Assembly: GCA_027451365.1 (NCBI GenBank)
Contig: DAIDJN010000022.1
Location: 1-29,964, forward strand
Direction: 5' to 3'
DNA from: Phycisphaerales bacterium
GTDB taxonomy: Bacteria; Planctomycetota; Phycisphaerae; WQYP01
Length of the DNA: 29,964 nucleotides
Shown: piece after piece, positions 10,380 through 28,674 of the stretch
Layout of the letters: each line of letters starts with the position of its first letter
Position numbering within the stretch: the first letter of the stretch is position 1
The notes under the pieces: generated by a model
What the model saw: only the letters and a program-made list of their open reading frames with translations
Database searches by the model: none
What the model was told of the DNA's origin: nothing
Position numbers and translations under genes: made by a program

Positions 10380-10719
10380 AACGAATGAAATTGTAGCGTA
10401 AAAAATTCTACCCGTCTTTCAGGTGGCTTTACGCATTTATTGGGGAGTCCGCCAATATTTGCGGCCGGCCAATTGTTTTCGCCGCTCGAACGGCTTTTTG
10501 GCAGACCCGCTTATGGCGCACACCGGATGCAGGCGAAACGCCAATCGAAACATCAATTTTTTCGGCCGATTACAAATTGTCTGGAACCTCCAGCCGACAT
10601 CAACACCTTAAGGGCAGACTCTGGAAATCTTTTCTTTTAATACACTTAAATCAATGGGGATTTTATTTGGGAGGTCGGCAAGGGCTAAGGGAATGCGGGC
10701 CGCAAGGAGTCCGCGGGCA

Positions 10720-11085
10720 TAGACCTGTCATAAATCATGTGAACAACCTGTGGATAAATTATCCGTTGAGCGATGAACGACAAAATGTCGTGGCAGGCGG
10801 CTAACATAAAAGACGCCATTTACTGTATAAACGCTCACAAAACACCAACATGTCATTTACAAAGCCAACAGGTCAGTGTCAGGTTACGCACCTGTCACGC
10901 GAACAACCTTTTCGATTATAAAATCAGTAAAATAAATTACTTATGATTATTTTAAGATCATTTATCCACATTCCAACAGCCCTTACTACTACTACTACTT
11001 ATTTTTAAAAAGATATAAGGGGCCGCGATTGTTGCCTTTCACGCAAGATGGAATAAATGACCAAACAGATATTGTGGATAAGTTG
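10720..11085. other. Chromosomal replication origin oriC (DnaA boxes plus basal unwinding system)
   Basis: Perfect DnaA boxes at 10749-10757 (TGTGGATAA), 10962-10970 (TTATCCACA) and 11073-11081 (TGTGGATAA); a degenerate box at 10738-10746. AT-rich intergenic region of about 800 bp next to dciA-dnaN-dnaA. Confidence 0.85.
10962..11018 (+). repeat. DnaA box + degenerate box + GC spacer + DnaA-trios (TAC x5, 10984-10998) + AT-rich tract
   Basis: TTATCCACA TTCCAACA GCCCT TACTACTACTACTAC TTATTTTTAAAAAGATATAA has the same layout as the Bacillus subtilis incC unwinding region. Confidence 0.88.
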
Positions 11086-11178
11086 TTGAGAAATCTGTTT
11101 GATTTGGCGCGAAAACACGGTATTTACTGATTATTTCACATTCGCTTTTCCCTATTCAACCGGGCTTTTTTCCAGGGT

Positions 11179-11754
11179 TCAGCCATCGGCTTTCATCCTG
11201 TTTACGACCGTCTTCACGCGGCGAACGGTTCCACGGGTACGAAGTTGAATTTTTGCAAGCAATTGCGAACGTAATTGGGAATCAATTTCAGACTTAGCGG
11301 CCGCGCTTTGTATATACACCAGCAGACTGCCACGGTGAATGCCAGCTAAAGCGCTTGCGCGGACGAGTCGGTCGGGCAATTCCGCCTTCCAGATTTCCAC
11401 CAGATCAGTCAGAAGAATTTCTGGCTTTGCAATATTTTTTTCAAACCAGTCAGGAAGAAATTCACCAAGTTTGACCGGTGGATGGCGATCCAGGGCGGGG
11501 CGGCTTCGAATAATGCGCGAGAGCGTATCGAATTTATTTTTCTGGCGGGAATCCGCGAGCAGAGAGGAAATTTCAGACGATTTTTCCGGGTTGTCCGGCG
11601 AAGCAGATTTTTTGCTGCTCGGCAAAGGTGTTGTTTTTTCCGCTTTGGCAAGGCGCGTGCGGCGTCTGTTTTCACCTGATGGCGAACCGGATTTGGAAAA
11701 GTTGACGGTCACGGGCACCTCCATGCAATGAGGATTGATGAACCGGCCTGCCAT
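11179..11754 (-). CDS. dciA: DciA (DUF721) family helicase-loading protein
   Basis: LVEIWKAELPDRLVRASALAGIHRGSLLVYIQSAAAKSEI matches the DUF721 core. Canonical position after dnaN. Start uncertain (11754, 11724 or later). Confidence 0.75.
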   Translation of the reverse strand: MAGRFINPHCMEVPVTVNFSKSGSPSGENRRRTRLAKAEKTTPLPSSKKSASPDNPEKSSEISSLLADSRQKNKFDTLSRIIRSRPALDRHPPVKLGEFLPDWFEKNIAKPEILLTDLVEIWKAELPDRLVRASALAGIHRGSLLVYIQSAAAKSEIDSQLRSQLLAKIQLRTRGTVRRVKTVVNRMKADG

Positions 11755-11895
11755 TTTTTATATTGACGGAACATGTGCTGGACCGGTCCATCAGCCGATT
11801 GCGGGTGCGAATGCCCGCCGTCTCAATCCGGTTACCCGATCAGATGAATGGCGTTGCCCGGTGCCGATTGCCATTGGGCGTCGGTGTTGGGTGGA

Positions 11896-13041
11896 TCAGG
11901 TCAGGCTTACCGGCATAATAACATATAGAAAGCCGGGTCCGGATTTAATCAGGCCGGGCTTATTCGGCGCACGCAATTCAAAGGTAATGTCTTCAGTCGG
12001 GGCAACTTTCAGGGCATCCTGAAGATAGATCGGGTTAAAGCCGACATCCATCGGTTCGGCCGAGTAATCCATGGTCATTTCCACTTTAGCTTCGCCCATT
12101 TCCGGCGCGCGTCCGGTGATGGTAAGGCTTTTATTGGCGAAACTTAAGCGGATGGATTTGGATTCTTCATTGGTTAAAAGCGCTGCGCGCTGCACGGCAC
12201 TGCGCAGTTTGTCGCGGTTCATGGTGGCTTTATGATCGCAATCTTTGGGGATGACATCTTTATATGGCGGGAAATTTCCTTCCACCAGCGATGCGGAGAG
12301 CGATGCGGTTACCAGACCTTCACCCTTCTCGCCGGCGGTTTTGGAAACGACCTGGGCGAAAAGCTTGCCTTCACGGAATTGAAGCTGCACAGTCTGCTGG
12401 CCGTCGGTAAGCAGACGTTCAAGCATGTTGATGGCTTTGATTGGAATAATGCTTTCGCTTTCTTTGGCATCGGCGGATTCCAAATCGTCGCGGGTCTGGG
12501 CCAGACGATGGCCATCGGTGGCGACCATACTTACTTTTTTGCCTTTACGTTCAAAAAGAACGCCATTCATGGCATAGCGTGTCATTTCCTTGGCGGCGGC
12601 AAAACGCGTGCGGTCGAGCATGGTTTTCAGCAGAGCGGAGGAAAGGGAGCAATCTGGTTCGCCTTCAAAACCACTGACAGGCGGGAAGTCTTCAGTGTTG
12701 TACCCCAGAAGGGTGAAGGTACTGTCCTGGCCGATGATGGTGGCCTTTTCGCCGGTGACTTCAATAGCCAGTGTCTCATCGGGTGAATTGTTGACGATTT
12801 CCATCAGCTTCTGGGCGGGCAGAAGGGCCACACCATCCTGTTTTATATCCACCTGAGAAAGGGAGGTTTCAATGGTCATTTCCAGGTCTGTGGCGACAAT
12901 GCGCAAAACCCGCGCACTGCCCGCGGTGGCGGTGCATATACGCACGCATGCAAGAACCGGCTTGGGCGACCGCGTGGGTACCACACTGCAAGCAAGACCA
13001 AGTACTTCAACCAGAGCCTGACGATGAACAATTGCTTTCAT
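11896..13041 (-). CDS. dnaN: DNA polymerase III subunit beta (sliding clamp)
   Basis: Motifs ATDLE, RYAMNGV, VATDGHRLA, EGNFPPY, GFNPIYL and YVIMP; follows dnaA. Confidence 0.97.
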   Translation of the reverse strand: MKAIVHRQALVEVLGLACSVVPTRSPKPVLACVRICTATAGSARVLRIVATDLEMTIETSLSQVDIKQDGVALLPAQKLMEIVNNSPDETLAIEVTGEKATIIGQDSTFTLLGYNTEDFPPVSGFEGEPDCSLSSALLKTMLDRTRFAAAKEMTRYAMNGVLFERKGKKVSMVATDGHRLAQTRDDLESADAKESESIIPIKAINMLERLLTDGQQTVQLQFREGKLFAQVVSKTAGEKGEGLVTASLSASLVEGNFPPYKDVIPKDCDHKATMNRDKLRSAVQRAALLTNEESKSIRLSFANKSLTITGRAPEMGEAKVEMTMDYSAEPMDVGFNPIYLQDALKVAPTEDITFELRAPNKPGLIKSGPGFLYVIMPVSLT

Positions 13042-13210
13042 GGAATTCGCATCCTGTTGTATGAATCCCTGTATTTCCTACGCTGACACCGGTGCGGGAA
13101 ATCAGACCGACTTTACGCATGGCAGATAATACCAATGGCGGAGCGCTTCAACAACAAAAGAGCTTCTGTTACCGATTTTATTCGCATACGTTTGCTGTTT
13201 GGCGGAATGG

Positions 13211-14572
13211 TTAAGATGCCATCTGACTGGCGGCCAAGGCGGGCCGGCTTATTTCCCGTTCGAGGCTGTTTTCGATCTGTTCAATCTGGCGGGCGAAGGC
13301 GGCATCGGTTTGGCGCAGGTGTTCGATAGTTTTAACGGAATGCATGACGGTGGTGTGGTCGCGGCCGCCGAAGAAACCGCCGGTTTCTTCAAGTGAATAC
13401 TGGGTATATTTGCGCACCAGATACATGCAGACCTGGCGCGGGAGGGTAATGGATTTATGGCGTTTTTTACCCTGAAGGTCAGGCACACGAACATTAAAGA
13501 AACGGGTGACGTGCCCGACAACCTGCAAAATAGAAACCATGCGGTTGGCCTGGGGCAGAAGATCACCAAGGGCGGCCTGAGCGAGCGTCAAGTTGTACAC
13601 CCCGCCGTTGAGCATGGCCTGGCCCATGAGTTTGGTGATAGCGCCCTCAATTTCCCGGACATTGTTTTCACAGCGTTTGGCGACAAATTCAGCGACATCT
13701 TCGGGCAGGGCGACGCCGCGAAGGTCGGCCTTGCGCCTGACGATAATCAGCCGGGTTTCAAAACAGGGCGGTTCAACTTCCGCCAGCAGGCCATTAGCGA
13801 ACCGCGAAACCAGGCGTTCTTCCATGGAGGGAATATCCCGCGGCGGGCTGTCCGAGCTTAAGATAATCTGTTTGCCCTGGGGCAGCAGGGCATTAAAGGT
13901 ATGAAAAAATTCTTCCTGTGAGCGATCGCGACCGGCCAGAAAGTGAATATCATCCACCACTAAGACATCGCAATTGTTACGAAAGAGTTGGCGGAACTGG
14001 CCCTGGTTTCCGCTGGAGATAGATTCCATAAAGTGATTGACGAACTGTTCGCAGGTAATGTAAAGGATTCGGACGTCCGGCTGGCGGCTAAGCAGGTCCT
14101 GGCAGGTCGCCTGCAGCAGATGGGTTTTGCCGAGTCCCGGCGCGCCATGAATAAAAAGCGGGTTGTAGACCCGGCCTGGCTGCATGGCCACGGCCTGGCA
14201 GGCGCGATGGGCGAGATCATTGGCTGGGCCGACGACAAAATTCTCAAAAATAAAATCCGGGGATAGCGGGACTTCATTGCACAGATTCATGACCGGATTG
14301 AGTCCTGCGGAACCCGGACAGATGAAATTGACGCCCAAGAGGCGGCCTGTGACGGATTGCACCGCCTCCACAAAGACAGGGCGGCACTTCATGGACAGAT
14401 GCTGCTGTTGAACCAGGGTCTGGCAGCGGACAGTAATTGTGCCGCTGGAAATCTCGATCGGTTCAAGTTCGGAGAACCATTGGCGCACAACAGGGGAATG
14501 GAACTGGCGCAGGTAGACCAGCATGTCATTCCAGGTATTGCGGGCCTGACTCGCGGCATCAAGCGGCACCAT
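13211..14572 (-). CDS. dnaA: Chromosomal replication initiator DnaA
   Basis: [27 protein letters not shown] (Walker A), [33 protein letters not shown] and [19 protein letters not shown] upstream of ATG 14572. Confidence 0.97.
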
Positions 14573-15154
14573 ACAAGATTTCCTTCCAATGGGTCCATCA
14601 GGCGGCGTGAGCGCAAAGACTCCGGAATTGGCACGGGCCGTCAGGGGCCGGTCCGATTCAAACCGCATGCGGGAAACTCAATTATTTCAAAATTAGCTGC
14701 ATCCTGCGCGGCGGACTATGACGAAATGCTCCCAAGTCGTCAGGCGTGATTGCACGGTTTGTACGCGGATGTTTAACCGCATCGCATTTCCATGCCGCGC
14801 GCCAGGTGTCGCCGCAGTTTTTATTCCGCCGATAATCCGGGGAAACCGGAGTATCGGACGGATTGATTTACCAGCAAAAAGCGGACCGCGGAAATTGATG
14901 CGTGAATCGGAACGCGGATACAGGAGGTGGAACCAACTGTACCCTGACCGGACCGCTGGCGGGAATTCCGCCACGTCGGGCCATCGGAGAAAATCCATCC
15001 TTGCCGGCCGCACCGGCTGCCGCATCCAAACCCGCAACCGGCCATTTGGCCGGCCCGCTGACTCTCTTCTCCCGGTCTATCTTCCGTCCTTTTGGCGCCG
15101 CGCCGGACCGTTTACCGCAGGTTTTTACACCTTTGCGCCAATGAACCCGGCGGC

Positions 15155-15404: not shown

Positions 15405-16331
15405 CTAAAACAGGATTTCCGCATGTGCAGGCGATGGTTTTTGTCCGACGGCTTTCACCCGCTTTCCATTCACTCGCCGTATGCCGTTGGCGGTTGCCGG
15501 TACGGAGTTCAGCGGCGCATCGGAACCTAAAAGTACATCGCCCACTTTTGTTTCCGCCAGGCGGCTTTCGATGCGTGCGGCATATTCCGGTGAAAGTTCA
15601 AAACCCAGAAATTGCCGGCCCAGTTTTTTAGCTGTGACCAGCGTGGATCCGCTGCCGCCGAACGGGTCGAGAACCGTCTGGCCTTCATTGGAACAGGCCT
15701 TGATAATGCGGCCGAGCAATTGCTCCGGCATCTGACAGCCGTGCCAGCCGGCACGTTCCTTGAATGTGCCGCAGACGCGGGGAACGTACCAGACATCTTC
15801 ATTGGGCTGAAACTGATCCGGGATATCCTGTGGACGCAATATCCAAGTGTCATCGGGCAGGCGGCCATCCGGATTGCCCCGGCTATCGCCATAGACCAGC
15901 GTTCGAGCCGACGGCACGCGAATGGGGGGAATATTGAAGGTAAATGCTTTTGGATTTTTGACAAAATGAAACAGGTGTGTGTGGCTGCGTGCGAATTTAA
16001 ATTTGCATTGCACGCCAAAAGTGTAATACCACAACACCCAGCTGCGGCAGGTCAGGCCGAGTTCACGTTGGAAAATCAGCTTAAGTTCCGCAGCGAAATC
16101 ATCGCCAATAGCCAGCCAGAAAGTGCCATCCGGCTTTAGTGCTTTTACTACGCCGGCACCCCAGCGGCGGGTCCAGTCCAGGTAATCATCAGCGGCGCGC
16201 TTGTCTTCATACACATCGTATTTGTAGCCGATGTTAAAGGGTGGATCGGCGAAAATAAGGTCAATGGATCCGGGCGGAACTTCCGCCAGCCCCTCGACAC
16301 AATCACGCTGATAAATCTGATTCAGTTCCAT
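15405..16331 (-). CDS. Orphan site-specific DNA methyltransferase (N6-A/N4-C, beta class)
   Basis: Catalytic motif [12 protein letters not shown] precedes SAM motif [12 protein letters not shown]; also HGCQMPEQL and GRQFLGFE. No neighbouring restriction endonuclease. ATG 16331. Confidence 0.9.
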
Positions 16332-16471
16332 TGCCGCGGCCCTTTTTTCTGTCCGATGCTGCTGATTGCATTCATTACAAGATGCTGTCCGAACAAATGA
16401 CAAACAACACAATATATCGTACCATGCGCCATGGTTTGCTGTCCAATGCAGGGGTATGAAACGTGACACAA

Positions 16472-20063: not shown

Positions 20064-20690
20064 TTAAGGCTGCTGGGCAGGCGGAATATTCCCGGAGGTT
20101 TGCGGACCAAAACCGAAGATCCACCAGTCGCTGCGATACGTCCGGCCGACAAACGGCCCGGAGCTGGCCACAATGTCGCCGGTTTTTCGCCAGTAGGCAA
20201 CATAGGCGACGCTGGCATATCCCTTTTGATGAATATTTTTGAACAAGGCAATTTCCGGGATAAGCACCGGAATATAGCCGAGGCCCGATGTGGGCGTACT
20301 GGTGGCGTAAACGGGTGGAATGCCGACCAACAGGCTTTGGTTATTAATTCCCAGTGCGGCGCAGCGGACTTCCAGAACAATTTGCGCTTTGGCACGGGTG
20401 TTGACCAGCCGCACACCACCGGCCAGAAGATGGGCACGCAGGTCTGCAACCAGAAATTTTTGCTGGTCAATGGATTTATCCAGAAACTCGGCATCCACAA
20501 ATACCCGCCGGTCACGCAGATTTGAAACCGTAAGGCGGGCGATGGATTTGGATGCCGCATCGGAGAGTAAATATTGTTCATCCGCGGTTTCCGGAGGGCT
20601 GGTGACGCGCAGCGTGGTACACGCGGCCGAAAGCAACGCCAGGGCGCAGCAGAACAGCATGGCAACGCGGCTTATAAGGCGCTTCGGCAT
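20064..20690 (-). CDS. DUF6655-like lipoprotein
   Basis: Lipobox-like LALLSAA-C, followed by T-x-PPETADEQYLLSDA...RRVFVD...LRAHLLAGGVRLV...IVLEVRCAALG. Start 20690 or 20729. Confidence 0.65.
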   Translation of the reverse strand: MPKRLISRVAMLFCCALALLSAACTTLRVTSPPETADEQYLLSDAASKSIARLTVSNLRDRRVFVDAEFLDKSIDQQKFLVADLRAHLLAGGVRLVNTRAKAQIVLEVRCAALGINNQSLLVGIPPVYATSTPTSGLGYIPVLIPEIALFKNIHQKGYASVAYVAYWRKTGDIVASSGPFVGRTYRSDWWIFGFGPQTSGNIPPAQQP

Positions 20691-20910
20691 AAAGGAATAA
20701 TGAAACGTGTGTATGGGTATCTTTGGCATGGAATAAACGGTATCTCCAAAGGCTGAGCACAAAAAGCCTTTCAATGTTATTAATTCACGACCGGCGGGCC
20801 GTTGCAGGCGATTCATATAACGTTGTCGGCGGAATGTTATTCCAGCAAATCAGTATTGGGGCGATTAAATGGACGACGTTCGACGGACTTTTTCCCGCCC
20901 GGAGGAGGTT

Positions 20911-21399
20911 TTATCGGCGATAGGCGTTGGGAAAGGCAATATGGGCCGCAAATTCCCGGTCTTCCAGAAGCTTAACCCCCCTTGTCCTGATTTCACCTGC
21001 GGTAATTGTCAACACATCTGCGCCCTGCGGAAGGATGTTGCCGGCAATTTGAACCGAAAGCTCGGCGGTGATGCCATAAATGTTCCGATGGCGCTCTTTC
21101 AGATACGGGTGCTGATCAGGTGAGAATTCGTGCTTTATATCCAGTTGAAGATTTTGGAAATGATCGCGCCGGATTCGCAAAAAGTGAACGGTCTCCGGCT
21201 TGCGGGTCAGCACGACGGGAAGTGTCGCAGTCAGTTTTTCTTCTGCGCTGTCCGGGATTTGGTAAACAGAAAGACCACCGTTGTCGATGGGGCGAGGAAT
21301 CAGGTCCGCTGAAGCGGTTTGTGTGAATTCCCGCGAAACCGGCGCGGTCCCATCGGGTGTCCAGCGGCTTCGCCTGACCGATCGAATCAGCCAACACAT
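20911..21399 (-). CDS. Hypothetical protein, putative divergent ADP-ribosyltransferase-fold toxin
   Basis: N-terminal strand Arg (WLIRSV), GLSVY strand and a late HRNI strand. GGAG SD; 6 bp after the upstream stop. Confidence 0.5.
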   Translation of the reverse strand: MCWLIRSVRRSRWTPDGTAPVSREFTQTASADLIPRPIDNGGLSVYQIPDSAEEKLTATLPVVLTRKPETVHFLRIRRDHFQNLQLDIKHEFSPDQHPYLKERHRNIYGITAELSVQIAGNILPQGADVLTITAGEIRTRGVKLLEDREFAAHIAFPNAYRR

Positions 21400-21405
21400 G
21401 TCGTA

Positions 21406-22077
21406 TCAGCACTCCGCGCCAAGGGAGCGAAAAGTCTGGGTTGTGAGCGCTTTTAATGTCGGGTCGCGTTCGACATCTAAATGTTCGCGAAGCAAGGTCG
21501 CGGCATTTTGGTATGGTAGTGCGCCCGCGGCGGCAATCGCCTTTTCCCGGACATCCTTGGAGTCGGAGCCTAAGCCAACGTCTATGGCGGCGGCGATGGC
21601 GTCAATTGACTCGGCGGTTTGCGTCCGGTCCATCCAGGCAAGGGCCTGGAATAAAGCGCACAAATGTTCCGATCCGGCGCTGCAATCAACCCAGCGCAGA
21701 ATTGGATCGATCGCCGGCTGTCCAATTTCACTTAGCGTGAGGGCCACGCGGTCTAATAATTCAATGTCCGTTTCTTCTGAACTGCGCGCGATCAGCCATG
21801 CGGCGCCTTCAGCGCCAGTCAGCCGCCAGGCCGCGGTCTGTTGGCGCAGGCAATTACCTCCGGCGTAGGGGCCGTCCCATTTGGCCAGGAGTTCAAAAAG
21901 CTCGCTGGGATCCGGCGTGTTGGGTGGCAGGCTGCCGGGGGATAAATTAAACGGCGGCCTGATCGGCAGTTGCAAGGCGGATTCCCGGGTGCCGGCGACA
22001 GCGTTAAAAGATAAGGCTCCCGCCCGCACCCGATTGGAGGGTTCTGCGGGAATTTCGATTGCATGTGCTAGCGCCAT
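21406..22077 (-). CDS. HEAT-repeat-like helical protein with Pro-rich N-terminus
   Basis: ALTLSEIGQPAIDPIL, GLGSDSKDVREKAIAAAGAL and HLDVERDPTLKAL are HEAT/PBS-type repeats. CAGGAG SD; 4 bp after the upstream stop. Confidence 0.6.
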   Translation of the reverse strand: MALAHAIEIPAEPSNRVRAGALSFNAVAGTRESALQLPIRPPFNLSPGSLPPNTPDPSELFELLAKWDGPYAGGNCLRQQTAAWRLTGAEGAAWLIARSSEETDIELLDRVALTLSEIGQPAIDPILRWVDCSAGSEHLCALFQALAWMDRTQTAESIDAIAAAIDVGLGSDSKDVREKAIAAAGALPYQNAATLLREHLDVERDPTLKALTTQTFRSLGAEC

Positions 22078-22081
22078 GATC

Positions 22082-22783
22082 TTACTCCTGCAAGCATTTT
22101 ATAGCGTCAAGCGTGCGCTGCAACTGCTGCCGCGCGGCGCTTTGTGTGGCTGTCGCGTGATTGGCCAGAAGGGGTCCGATATTAAACTGGTCGAATTTCA
22201 CCCTTCCGGCGTGGTCGGTTCCGGGCTGAATCGTAAAGGTGGTCTTAAAATTTAGAAATATTCTCTGTCGGTCCCGATTTGACGGTTCAATGAGCACGGA
22301 CGTTTCCTGAGCTTCATTACCGAAGTTATGGCTGAAATGGGCCGTTCCATCCGGTGGCCCGGCAAGCCCAATGTTGGCATTACTTATCGCAGTAAGCAAG
22401 CCGCGTCGCGGGTCAATACCGGTTTGGACCCCGGCATGGAAGAAGAAGCCGATGCTGTAGGCCTGTATTGGGGTATGGGGAAGCAGATCGTCAAATAGTT
22501 TCGCAGCCATGGTTACAATCGGCGACAAATCTTCCAATTGCGCAGTGGAGACGGTCCATGCCTGGGGTTGACATTGAATCTCGCCGGCGCGAAAAAGAAA
22601 TGAGGAAGAGATCGGTCCACTTGCCGGCCTCCCGTTGATGGCGGACTCATATTCATGTTCGGAAATAAGTCCCACCAGGCGATACCAGGCCGGGTGGTGA
22701 ATCGCGGCGTTCATGGAACCGGCGATCTGAATTTGACATCCCTCCATGCTGGTTAGAACCGGGTTTATTCCTGGCGGGTTCAA
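22082..22783 (-). CDS. Hypothetical protein, TIGR04255-like family
   Basis: IQIAGSMNAAIHHPAW and LLPHTPIQAYSIGFFFH motifs. TTG start with AAAGGAG SD (alternative ATG 22747). Confidence 0.55.
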   Translation of the reverse strand: MNPPGINPVLTSMEGCQIQIAGSMNAAIHHPAWYRLVGLISEHEYESAINGRPASGPISSSFLFRAGEIQCQPQAWTVSTAQLEDLSPIVTMAAKLFDDLLPHTPIQAYSIGFFFHAGVQTGIDPRRGLLTAISNANIGLAGPPDGTAHFSHNFGNEAQETSVLIEPSNRDRQRIFLNFKTTFTIQPGTDHAGRVKFDQFNIGPLLANHATATQSAARQQLQRTLDAIKCLQE

Positions 22784-22806
22784 GCACTGGTCTCCTTTGG
22801 TCTTCA

Positions 22807-22844
22807 GGTAAAGGGTTTACCACCGCTGGAAAGTATAACGTCAA
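22807..22844 (-). promoter_or_regulatory. Candidate promoter/operator of the three-gene cassette
   Basis: Perfect inverted repeat GGTAAA-GGG-TTTACC (22807-22821). Minus-strand TTGACG (22844-22839) and TATACT (22837-22832) are present but not canonically spaced. Confidence 0.35.
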
Positions 22845-22893
22845 TTCCGATTTTAAGAGAAATCACAGGACCCTTTCGTCGCCGGCCCGGCGG

Positions 22894-23703
22894 TCAGTTT
22901 TTGGTTCTTTCAATTTGGGCGTAGGCGTTGTGATTATGAATGGATTCAAAATTCTCGCTTTCAATCCGATACCAGGTGATGCGGGAATCGCGTTCCATTC
23001 CAGTCGCCAGGTCGCGAATAATGTCTTCCACAAACTTCGGATTATCAAAGGCCTGCTCGGTGACAAATTTTTCATCCGGCCGCTTTAGCACGGCATACAC
23101 CGGCGCGCTGGCGGCTTTTTCCATTATGGCCACGAGGTCTTCAATCCAGAGTTTGCCCGTGAATCGCACGCGGGCGGAAATTTCACACCGCTGATTGTGC
23201 GCGCCGTAGGCTGATATTTCCTTGCTGCACGGGCAAAGGCTGGTGGCCGGTGCCCGCACGCCCAGAATAAAATCATCCGAGCCATTGCTGGTACCTTCAA
23301 ATGAACAGACGTAATCCATCAGACCCCGTGCGCCGGTAACCGGCGCGGATTTTTCAATGAAATACGGAAACGTCATTTCAATGCGTGCGTCGTCGGCATG
23401 AAGCTTTTCACGCATTTCATGCAAAATAGGTGTGATAAGTTCCGGCGTAATGCTGCGGTGATGATGGTTTAGAATTTCCAGAAAACGGCTCATGTGCGTC
23501 CCTTTTTTATGTTTGGGAAGCGACACATACAGGTTGATCTGCGCTACGGTGTGCTGCTGGCCACCATTGGGACGCAAAAGTGTAATCGGGTAACGAACGC
23601 CCTTGACCCCCACCTGATCTATCGCGATTTCCCGTGAATCATCGGCGGACTGAACATCCGGCATGGGAGGTGATTTAACGGTGGGGTGGCTGTTTCGGGC
23701 CAT
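22894..23703 (-). CDS. folE2: GTP cyclohydrolase I type IB
   Basis: MPDVQ, IDQVGVKG, KGTHMSRF, TSLCPCSKEIS, GAHNQR, LKRPDEKFVTE, NPKFVED and ESIHNHNAYA. GAGG SD before ATG 23703. Confidence 0.95.
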   Translation of the reverse strand: MARNSHPTVKSPPMPDVQSADDSREIAIDQVGVKGVRYPITLLRPNGGQQHTVAQINLYVSLPKHKKGTHMSRFLEILNHHHRSITPELITPILHEMREKLHADDARIEMTFPYFIEKSAPVTGARGLMDYVCSFEGTSNGSDDFILGVRAPATSLCPCSKEISAYGAHNQRCEISARVRFTGKLWIEDLVAIMEKAASAPVYAVLKRPDEKFVTEQAFDNPKFVEDIIRDLATGMERDSRITWYRIESENFESIHNHNAYAQIERTKN

Positions 23704-28020: not shown

Positions 28021-28674
28021 ATGGCCTGCCAGCTTTTGAAAGCCAGAGAATTTGCTCATCTTGCCACGGTGGCCGGCCTTAGCCGGCCGACGCTGGATGA
28101 GCATTACCAGCTTTATCTTGGCTTTGTTCACAAGGCCAACAGTCTGACGGAAAAAATATGTGAGCGCCAGCGCACACGCGGTGCGTTGGATATGTCGGAC
28201 ATTGCCAATTTAAAGGGCGATCTTCAGTTTGCGCTGGCAGCCGTGCGCAACCATGAAATTTATTTTGACCTGCTCGGTCATCAGACCGTTCCCCTGCATC
28301 AGGAACTTGCCGACTGCATTGACGAAGCCTTCGACAGCACGGAAGGCTTCTTATTGGATTTACGGATGACCGCGGTTTCCAGTCGCGGCTGGGTCTGGAC
28401 GGTTTATGACCTGACCACGGGTCGGATATGGAATTTATCGGGCAGTCAGAATGGGCAATTTCCACTCTTTAACGCCGTTCCCATTCTGGCGCTGGACTTA
28501 AGCGACCACGCCTATTTTTATGATTTTGGTCTGCGTCGCGGCGCGTATGTGGATGTTGTTCTGGCGCACCTGCGGTGGGACCGTGTCTGGCGGAACCTTC
28601 AATCCGCTCAAGCCTTGCGCAACGCTGTCGGAAATTCGCCAGATGCGGCTGCTCCGCTGGCTCTGGCACGGTAA
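28021..28674 (+). CDS. Fe/Mn superoxide dismutase family protein with degenerate signature
   Basis: EHYQLY, NHEIYF, GWVW and PILALDLSDHAYFYDFG (canonical DVWEHAYY). AAGGA SD. Confidence 0.8.
   Translation: MACQLLKAREFAHLATVAGLSRPTLDEHYQLYLGFVHKANSLTEKICERQRTRGALDMSDIANLKGDLQFALAAVRNHEIYFDLLGHQTVPLHQELADCIDEAFDSTEGFLLDLRMTAVSSRGWVWTVYDLTTGRIWNLSGSQNGQFPLFNAVPILALDLSDHAYFYDFGLRRGAYVDVVLAHLRWDRVWRNLQSAQALRNAVGNSPDAAAPLALAR

Follow-up and report, generated by a model that had tools for sequence, protein, structure and literature searches.

What do three small, tightly packed genes do between the housekeeping genes of a planctomycete, and what does the first of them contribute? The genes lie on the minus strand of a 29,964-nucleotide (nt) stretch of a Phycisphaerales bacterium (assembly GCA_027451365.1, contig DAIDJN010000022.1, positions 1 to 29,964), hereafter the window. 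In the order in which they are read, they are gene A (22082..22783, 233 amino acids (aa), TTG start), a putative helper; gene B (21406..22077, 223 aa), a predicted HEAT-repeat antitoxin; and gene C (20911..21399, 162 aa), a predicted toxin with an ADP-ribosyltransferase (ART) fold. An earlier note on this DNA had proposed a defence cassette made of a TIGR04255-like sensor or chaperone, a HEAT-repeat antitoxin with a disordered N-terminus and an ART-like toxin. We favour, at a probability of about one half, a helper-controlled type II toxin–antitoxin (TA) module in which A would stabilise the tailed antitoxin B and also act as the trigger, a mirror image of the toxin–antitoxin–chaperone (TAC) systems.

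Distribution of the cassette and the loci of gene A

The cassette is an accessory unit, because it is replaced by 76 nt in the one genome of the same genus, occurs patchily and sits at a different site in another genome. In that genome (G001, 93% complete), the folE2-like gene is followed directly by the lipoprotein gene, and the 76 nt correspond to 2040 nt of the window (segment 20846..22887). The C family was found in 1 of 60 relatives and the A family in 4 of 60. Among 400 genomes of the phylum, a gene C profile gave three matches, one strong, one distant and one dropped as dubious (in G452; E 9.8e-4, partial and within a long open reading frame (ORF)), and a gene A profile matched 18, 11 of which had seeded it. 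Genome G027 carries all three genes at 40–53% identity, at another chromosomal site with housekeeping neighbours. The A family also occurs in a Trueperaceae genome, a metagenome contig and two plasmids, while three A-family queries gave no match among GenBank phages, and the three genes are found together in other phyla, in tight operons. Two suppositions behind the earlier proposal, that the genes co-occur and that they are no conserved core, are thereby borne out. No tRNA gene was found at the three loci L003, L014 and L015.

We read 30 loci of the A family, the window included. Two are cut off by the end of a contig; the 28 whose third gene could be read share one layout, in which A, a middle ORF and the third ORF follow each other in the same orientation and almost touch. 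The third genes vary: nine are ART-like, six encode metallo-β-lactamase (MBL)-fold hydrolases, five belong to an unnamed family with QGD..SCD motifs, four are HEPN, two PIN and one PemK, and one encodes an aspartyl protease and sits behind a DUF5678 gene. Five of the nine ART-like genes are close members of the C family, two were assigned by hhalign (L033, 73%; L039, 87%), one weakly (L034, 11%) and one by motif only, with no profile match to C (L043). Eleven loci were fetched after this idea had formed; among the ten with a readable third gene, that gene has a toxin- or defence-type Pfam domain in six and belongs to the unnamed family in four. Since all 28 share the order while their third genes differ, A appears to be a constant module placed before exchangeable pairs. 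As judged from these sequences, it is not specific to the C toxin and leads many unrelated pairs of toxin type, and the cassette likely represents a class of toxin switches under helper control that has yet to be described, possibly anti-phage.

Members of the QGD..SCD family (L038, L077, L079, L082, L085 and L045) are 190–310 aa long, share QGD(I/L) and (T/S)xSCD motifs and have no Pfam match. They occupy the toxin position behind low-complexity middle genes of 73–153 aa, and the family is a candidate new toxin family. At the six MBL loci (L035, L036, L037, L083, L048 and L049), A is followed by a middle gene of 180–270 aa, whose C-terminus looks β-barrel-like by eye, and by the MBL-fold hydrolase. 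The hydrolases have weak PADLOC matches to LmuA and to RT-associated MBL, and occur on Adhaeribacter and Pantoea plasmids.

The predicted toxin and its HEAT-repeat partner

Gene C has no match in Pfam, NCBIfam or PADLOC, and Pfam finds nothing in 30 homologues either. A search of 1.84 billion representative sequences supplied 27 homologues, and the resulting 31-row alignment conserves R6, W13, D32, R36, L43-S44, P68, P98, L100 and H104, with Arg or Lys at R6 in all 27 ungapped rows, Ser or Thr at S44 in all 31 and His at H104 in 29 of 30. The R...GLSV...H-x-x-I pattern singled out in the earlier note is present (R6, S44, H104 and I107) and conserved in the 31 homologues, although its serine is residue 44 and not 43.

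The AlphaFold2 model of C (predicted local distance difference test (pLDDT) 94) has strands at residues 2–5, 43–48, 71–77, 87–89, 104–108 and 128–132, arranged in ART order as the six-stranded split β-sheet core of the superfamily; R6 ends β1, S44 lies in β2 and H104-x-N106 in β5. In an exhaustive fold search of 48,161 chains, the best match was Tse2 (Z 5.0, root-mean-square deviation (rmsd) 3.3 Å over 101 residues). Of the 50 matches listed, 45, ranks 1–40 included, are proteins whose titles we take to denote ART folds (Tpt1, RES toxins, DarT, TreX and others). A second look placed Tpt1 first (Z 5.1), then DarT and RES. Overall, the matches have rmsd values of 2.9–3.3 Å over 86–101 residues, Z of at most 5.1 and 8–16% identity; these individual scores are modest, and we make the ART call because the list is consistent, which upholds the fold first proposed for the last gene. 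A profile search of PDB sequences gave chance S18 matches only. On its model, C is likely an NAD+-using ART-fold toxin, and it may act by ADP-ribosylation of nucleic acid or by destruction of NAD+, both being possible. A homologue in genome G140 (L014, 7190–7858) has a 50-residue C-terminal extension that ends in a hydrophobic, membrane-helix-like stretch.

The R-S-E clade of ADP-ribosyltransferases, as defined in 10.1101/2020.07.21.169896, has an arginine on β1 and a serine or threonine on β2, and the C family has both. The catalytic β5 glutamate of that clade is absent from C of the window (H104-R-N106); across the alignment, position 106 is Glu in 16 of 31 rows and Asn in 7. It is possible, at odds clearly below even, that C destroys NAD+ as RES toxins do rather than transferring ADP-ribose, or that the window copy is attenuated, a proposal that concerns the chemistry only and is compatible with a helper-controlled module. 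The RES toxins VPA0770, Xre-RES, ParT and MbcT are among the fold matches, and the glutamate is missing from the whole clade of the window (N106). Furthermore, Pro61 (codon 61, 21217–21219) falls within a predicted helix at a position where four close homologues and the public-run contig of a near-identical strain have His; the proline may mark an attenuated allele or stem from an error in the sequence. On the other hand, the nucleic-acid transferases Tpt1, DarT and TreX match C equally, differences in Z below 1 being ties, and the predicted site is bordered by R36 and R103, both basic and conserved.

Gene B comprises an N-terminal tail of about 58 residues, rich in Pro, Ser, Thr and Gly, and an acidic HEAT-repeat core of about 165 residues. 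Pfam HEAT_2 matches residues 145–214 (E=3.2e-5, below the curated cut-off), in agreement with the HEAT repeats noticed earlier, and Pfam finds HEAT only and no DNA-binding domain. Six B homologues share the core, with net charges of −7 to −16, and have N-termini that cannot be aligned.

B and C are predicted to form a complex with an ipSAE of 0.86 (0.86, 0.86 and 0.85 in the separate runs), against 0.01 for the best of three controls. In a benchmark, 116 of 157 solved complexes attained the ipSAE mark, as did 2 of 215 mismatched pairs, rates that are a rough guide here, where our own alignments were used. The runs share at least 68% of their contacts, with partner pLDDT values of at least 87. 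The predicted interface involves residues 65–218 of B, excluding the tail, and residues 7–11, 14, 31–38 (including D32 and R36), 64–70, 93–96, 131–135 and 153–159 of C. In each of the 11 C-family loci scored, whether or not A is present, a HEAT-like gene stands in front of the C-family gene. The genes are adjacent and co-oriented with a 6-nt gap, and direct binding, which together with such adjacency marks type II systems, is predicted. An antitoxin role of B is supported by the predicted complex, as the earlier note had supposed in assigning a HEAT antitoxin to the last protein, and B and C very probably form a type II antitoxin–toxin pair.

The antitoxin tail and the part played by gene A

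Pairs of a HEAT gene and a C-family gene also occur without A, at three loci (L017, L015 and L091), and there the HEAT proteins are short (168, 173 and 184 aa). At seven loci where A leads, they measure 223, 223, 242, 258, 273, 292 and 298 aa, with no overlap between the two groups, and the excess is N-terminal. A rank test of eight against three loci, including one from the Acinetobacter phage described below, gave p=0.006, the loci not being independent; L034 was left out as ambiguous, since its A gene is followed by a 65-aa ORF and a 164-aa HEAT ORF. In 8 of 8 cases, Pro, Ser, Thr and Gly are more frequent in the tail than in the core. The N-terminus of B that had been called disordered is indeed variable and of this composition, but on a composition scale it is more disorder-prone in just 4 of 8 cases. 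The natural short-antitoxin loci that lack A make the helper claim directly testable. Five A-led B proteins (from G000, G027, G140, L016 and L018) begin with Met-Ala-hydrophobic, and the short B of L017 does not; such starts resemble N-terminal ClpX degrons. The middle gene of L080 (224 aa) has the 49-position DUF5678 domain at 164–200.

A itself and its homologues match no family in Pfam or NCBIfam. A language-model atlas places it near unnamed clusters and one named cluster, TIGR04255 (0.95, 222 of 256 shared, a value below the reliable range of the tool), and A resembles this family in its similar length and first position. Two true TIGR04255 genes likewise lead a short middle ORF, one of them (L045) with a QGD..SCD third gene. 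Membership was rejected: the TIGR04255 hidden Markov model (HMM) matches neither A (E<=10) nor 17 aligned and 11 further homologues, and has no match at E<=1 over genome G000 (membership threshold at least 30 bits), while the positive control L045 scored 121.7 bits; hhalign of A against the family gave a probability of 0.2%. What survives of the TIGR04255-like label is a structural or positional analogue at most, and common ancestry of the two is possible.

The model of A (pLDDT 87) is a long sheet with helices behind, predicted as a pseudo-symmetric TBP-like or helix-grip saddle. The best-scoring folds are those of the McsB kinase domain (Z 7.7), of TBP (Z 7.4, rmsd 4.9 Å over 162 residues; Foldseek E 4e-4) and of AdoMetDC. 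SecB is absent from the 50 matches listed in both fold searches, families outside those lists remaining possible. The best structural match to A of all is the BFVD entry A0A515MGR4, an unnamed 202-aa viral protein (E 1e-9, TM 0.52/0.59), which by its model could be a prophage-borne A-family member or a decoy.

The likeness to TBP raises the main competing account, in which A is a nucleic-acid-binding regulator or sensor, as an operon repressor or as the RNA- or DNA-binding partner of the toxin, and B and C are an ordinary TA pair. Regulators are the first genes of some three-gene TA operons, and the HEAT antitoxin has no DNA-binding domain in Pfam. The TBP-like domains of the anti-phage toxin RnlA bind a nucleic-acid substrate (PMC8266594). 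However, A sequences are net acidic in 16 of 18 cases and their conservation falls on N, W, L, T, P and G rather than on basic residues; the McsB kinase domain and AdoMetDC score like TBP, which suggests a match to a common arrangement; the palindrome in the leader is at chance level; and the longer antitoxins behind A are left unexplained. We consider this account unlikely.

We return to the helper-controlled module. By analogy with TAC, whether A acts on the tail of B is evenly balanced in our judgement. A would hold the N-terminal tail of B while B is being translated from the following cistron, and the HEAT core of B would hold and neutralise C. A trigger, most likely phage infection, would displace A from B, with a phage protein perhaps competing for A; unprotected B would then be degraded by proteolysis, and C, once freed, would bring about abortive defence.

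A number of points weigh against this scheme. Binding of A to B is argued from gene context and from the contrast of seven with three lengths, which comes from non-independent loci with mechanically called starts; the 4 of 8 disorder result bears on the same step. Neither S44 nor H104 belongs to the interface residues predicted with confidence, so that blocking of the active site by B is no more than a possibility. No sequence profile names A or C. The fold scores of C are middling (Z 5), and Foldseek of C against the PDB gave no match at E<=0.001; those of A are also middling (Z 7–8) and concern a common arrangement, such that "TBP-like" is a description. The labels of four third genes (L043, L044, L049 and L034) come from motifs or weak scores. 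The missing β5 glutamate and Pro61 belong here too, as does the failure to find close C relatives in viral contigs (0 of 26 pattern matches) or, by scan, in plasmids, with patterns that are narrow (true in 1 of 26 matches in genomes and 2 of 69 in metagenomes). Lastly, the GC content of the cassette (0.558) equals that of the genome (0.553), no integrase or end repeats were found flanking it, and the window is no defence island.

An anti-phage role of the cassette is, in our estimate, slightly favoured over its absence. The opposing view is a selfish addiction or general-stress TA cassette, with A a folding aid or passenger. The neighbours are housekeeping genes in the window, G027 and L017, B–C pairs occur without A at three loci, and PADLOC names no A, B or C protein as a system. 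Still, a passenger would not be expected to stand first in all 28 loci, as A does, and several loci lie by mobile or defence genes, namely a gene resembling a type I restriction methylase (L085), plasmid-borne integrases and an IS3-like transposase. Two A operons (L080 and L081) stand just upstream of what we take, from a motif, to be prohead-protease-like genes, suggesting a prophage location. In the temperate Acinetobacter phage Ab105-1phi (KT588074.1; L090, 2659–4597), moreover, three hypothetical genes follow an endolysin-like gene and encode a protein of 226 aa without assigned family, a HEAT-like protein of 215 aa and a C-related ART of 197 aa, the last also matched in two other Acinetobacter phages. 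The first of these genes could not be linked to the A family (hhalign 0.8%), and the locus is not among the 30. These defence links, read from sequence, are circumstantial, and we regard a cassette without any phage role as improbable.

Local setting of the cassette

The gaps between the genes are 4 nt (A–B) and 6 nt (B–C). A Shine–Dalgarno (SD)-like AAAGGAG stands upstream of gene A, AGGAG for gene B overlaps the last codons of A, and GGAG for gene C lies within the end of B, 12 nt ahead of C. The ORF coordinates and SD words agree with the compact layout described earlier, and so do the flanks, with a gene judged by its sequence to be folE2-like on one side and, on the same basis, a lipoprotein/AsmA-like pair on the other. 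The promoter and palindrome once assigned to the leader (22784..22893, minus strand, 110 nt between the folE2-like gene and gene A) were not confirmed: a sigma-70 scan found 0 sites against 1.6 expected, the −10-like hexamer TATACT (22837–22832, minus strand) has no good −35, and an equivalent 6-bp inverted repeat arose in 26 of 300 shuffles of the leader. A contig from a public DNA run covers 20200–23074 with 18 differences in 2875 nt and bridges both cassette junctions, which argues against misassembly, although the contig may itself be source data.

Elsewhere in the window, an orphan DNA methyltransferase-like gene with a DPPF motif (15405–16469) lies 4.4 kb downstream of the cassette. In region 10400–14668, genes resembling dnaA and dnaN adjoin an AT-rich stretch (GC 0.447 at 10501–11500) in which the GC skew turns steadily positive; the replication origin is probably close by. 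At the left contig edge (25–1032) is a presumed phage-portal-like gene, in a frame with an atypical tail and possibly a prophage remnant, and at 28021–28674 is an ORF that we assume to be superoxide-dismutase-like, with apparently incomplete metal ligands.

Relation to known systems

PADLOC names none of the three proteins as a system, and the full-text literature searched, to which subscription papers and the supplementary tables of defence-system surveys did not belong, yielded neither an account of such an architecture nor any mention of TIGR04255; the view that it is not a named system is upheld to that extent. The catalytic triad of Tse2, the top match of C in the exhaustive fold search, is Arg-Ser-His. 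Tse2–Tsi2, RES–Xre, DarTG and Tpt1/DUF952 share with C a minimal ART core by fold search. Identities are 8–16% and Z does not exceed 5.1; in place of Tsi2, Xre/DUF2384 or a macrodomain, C is paired with a HEAT protein, and no secretion genes like those of the type VI system of Tse2–Tsi2 are nearby. Membership in RES–Xre or DarTG, which calls for an Xre–DUF2384 or macrodomain/NADAR antitoxin and a toxin of the RES or DarT family, was rejected, as Pfam gives HEAT alone for B and nothing for C or 30 homologues. A review (PMC6099711) describes Tse2 as an ART-like toxin that depends on NAD and is occluded by its acidic immunity protein. TBP-like domains are known from the anti-phage TA systems RnlAB and LsoAB (PMC8266594, PMC3710099), where they are fused to a HEPN toxin and bind the substrate, whereas here the saddle is a separate gene common to unrelated toxins.

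The closest likeness in design is to TAC. There, the antitoxin has a disordered tail at its C-terminus that renders it dependent on a SecB-like chaperone; this tail is modular, ordinary antitoxins become chaperone-dependent when it is grafted onto them, and phage proteins compete for the chaperone (10.1101/2024.02.24.581848, PMC11618068). CmdTAC is further marked by triggering through a phage protein and by ADP-ribosylation of mRNA. A three-gene system of ART, disordered antitoxin and SecB, cited in PMC7159879, is credited to Aravind 2015. The TAC systems (CmdTAC/PD-T4-9, HigBAC and MqsRAC) and our loci have in common a three-gene operon, a component that stays constant while TA pairs are exchanged and a low-complexity antitoxin tail, and CmdTAC also an ART-fold toxin, predicted in the case of C. 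The order differs: TAC operons run toxin–antitoxin–chaperone, whereas A comes first, the antitoxin-like gene second and the toxin-like gene last in the window and at all 28 readable loci. The constant component is the SecB-like third gene in TAC and a first gene of 205–230 aa, modelled as a TBP-like saddle, here. In TAC, the tail is a C-terminal ChAD that in many cases carries an aliphatic Ala-Ala degron at its end; here it is N-terminal, the antitoxin is a folded HEAT protein and B ends in its conserved core. CmdT, an ART-fold toxin, has the catalytic triad HY-[EDQ] (PMC11618068), in contrast to R6, S44 and H104 of C, and the partners of A include HEPN, PIN, PemK, MBL and aspartyl protease genes. 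Identity with CmdTAC fails on gene order, tail position and triad alike: the cassette resembles TAC in design but is no TAC or CmdTAC member.

We tentatively suggest, at somewhat less than even odds, that A represents a second, independently evolved class of TA helper, a TBP-fold protein that would grip N-terminal tails on unrelated antitoxins, sense phage proteins and arm at least six toxin folds, namely ART, HEPN, PIN, PemK, MBL and aspartyl protease, plus an unnamed family, with TIGR04255 maybe a distant branch. If this is true, a scattered hypothetical family gains a function, and A becomes a marker gene for new toxins, two unnamed candidates having come from the 30 loci, one the C family, paired with its HEAT antitoxin, and the other the QGD..SCD family. 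In the TAC literature consulted, every chaperone-dependent system uses a SecB-like protein, which is both chaperone and phage sensor, and the same design would then have evolved twice, here with a different fold and in mirror-image order.

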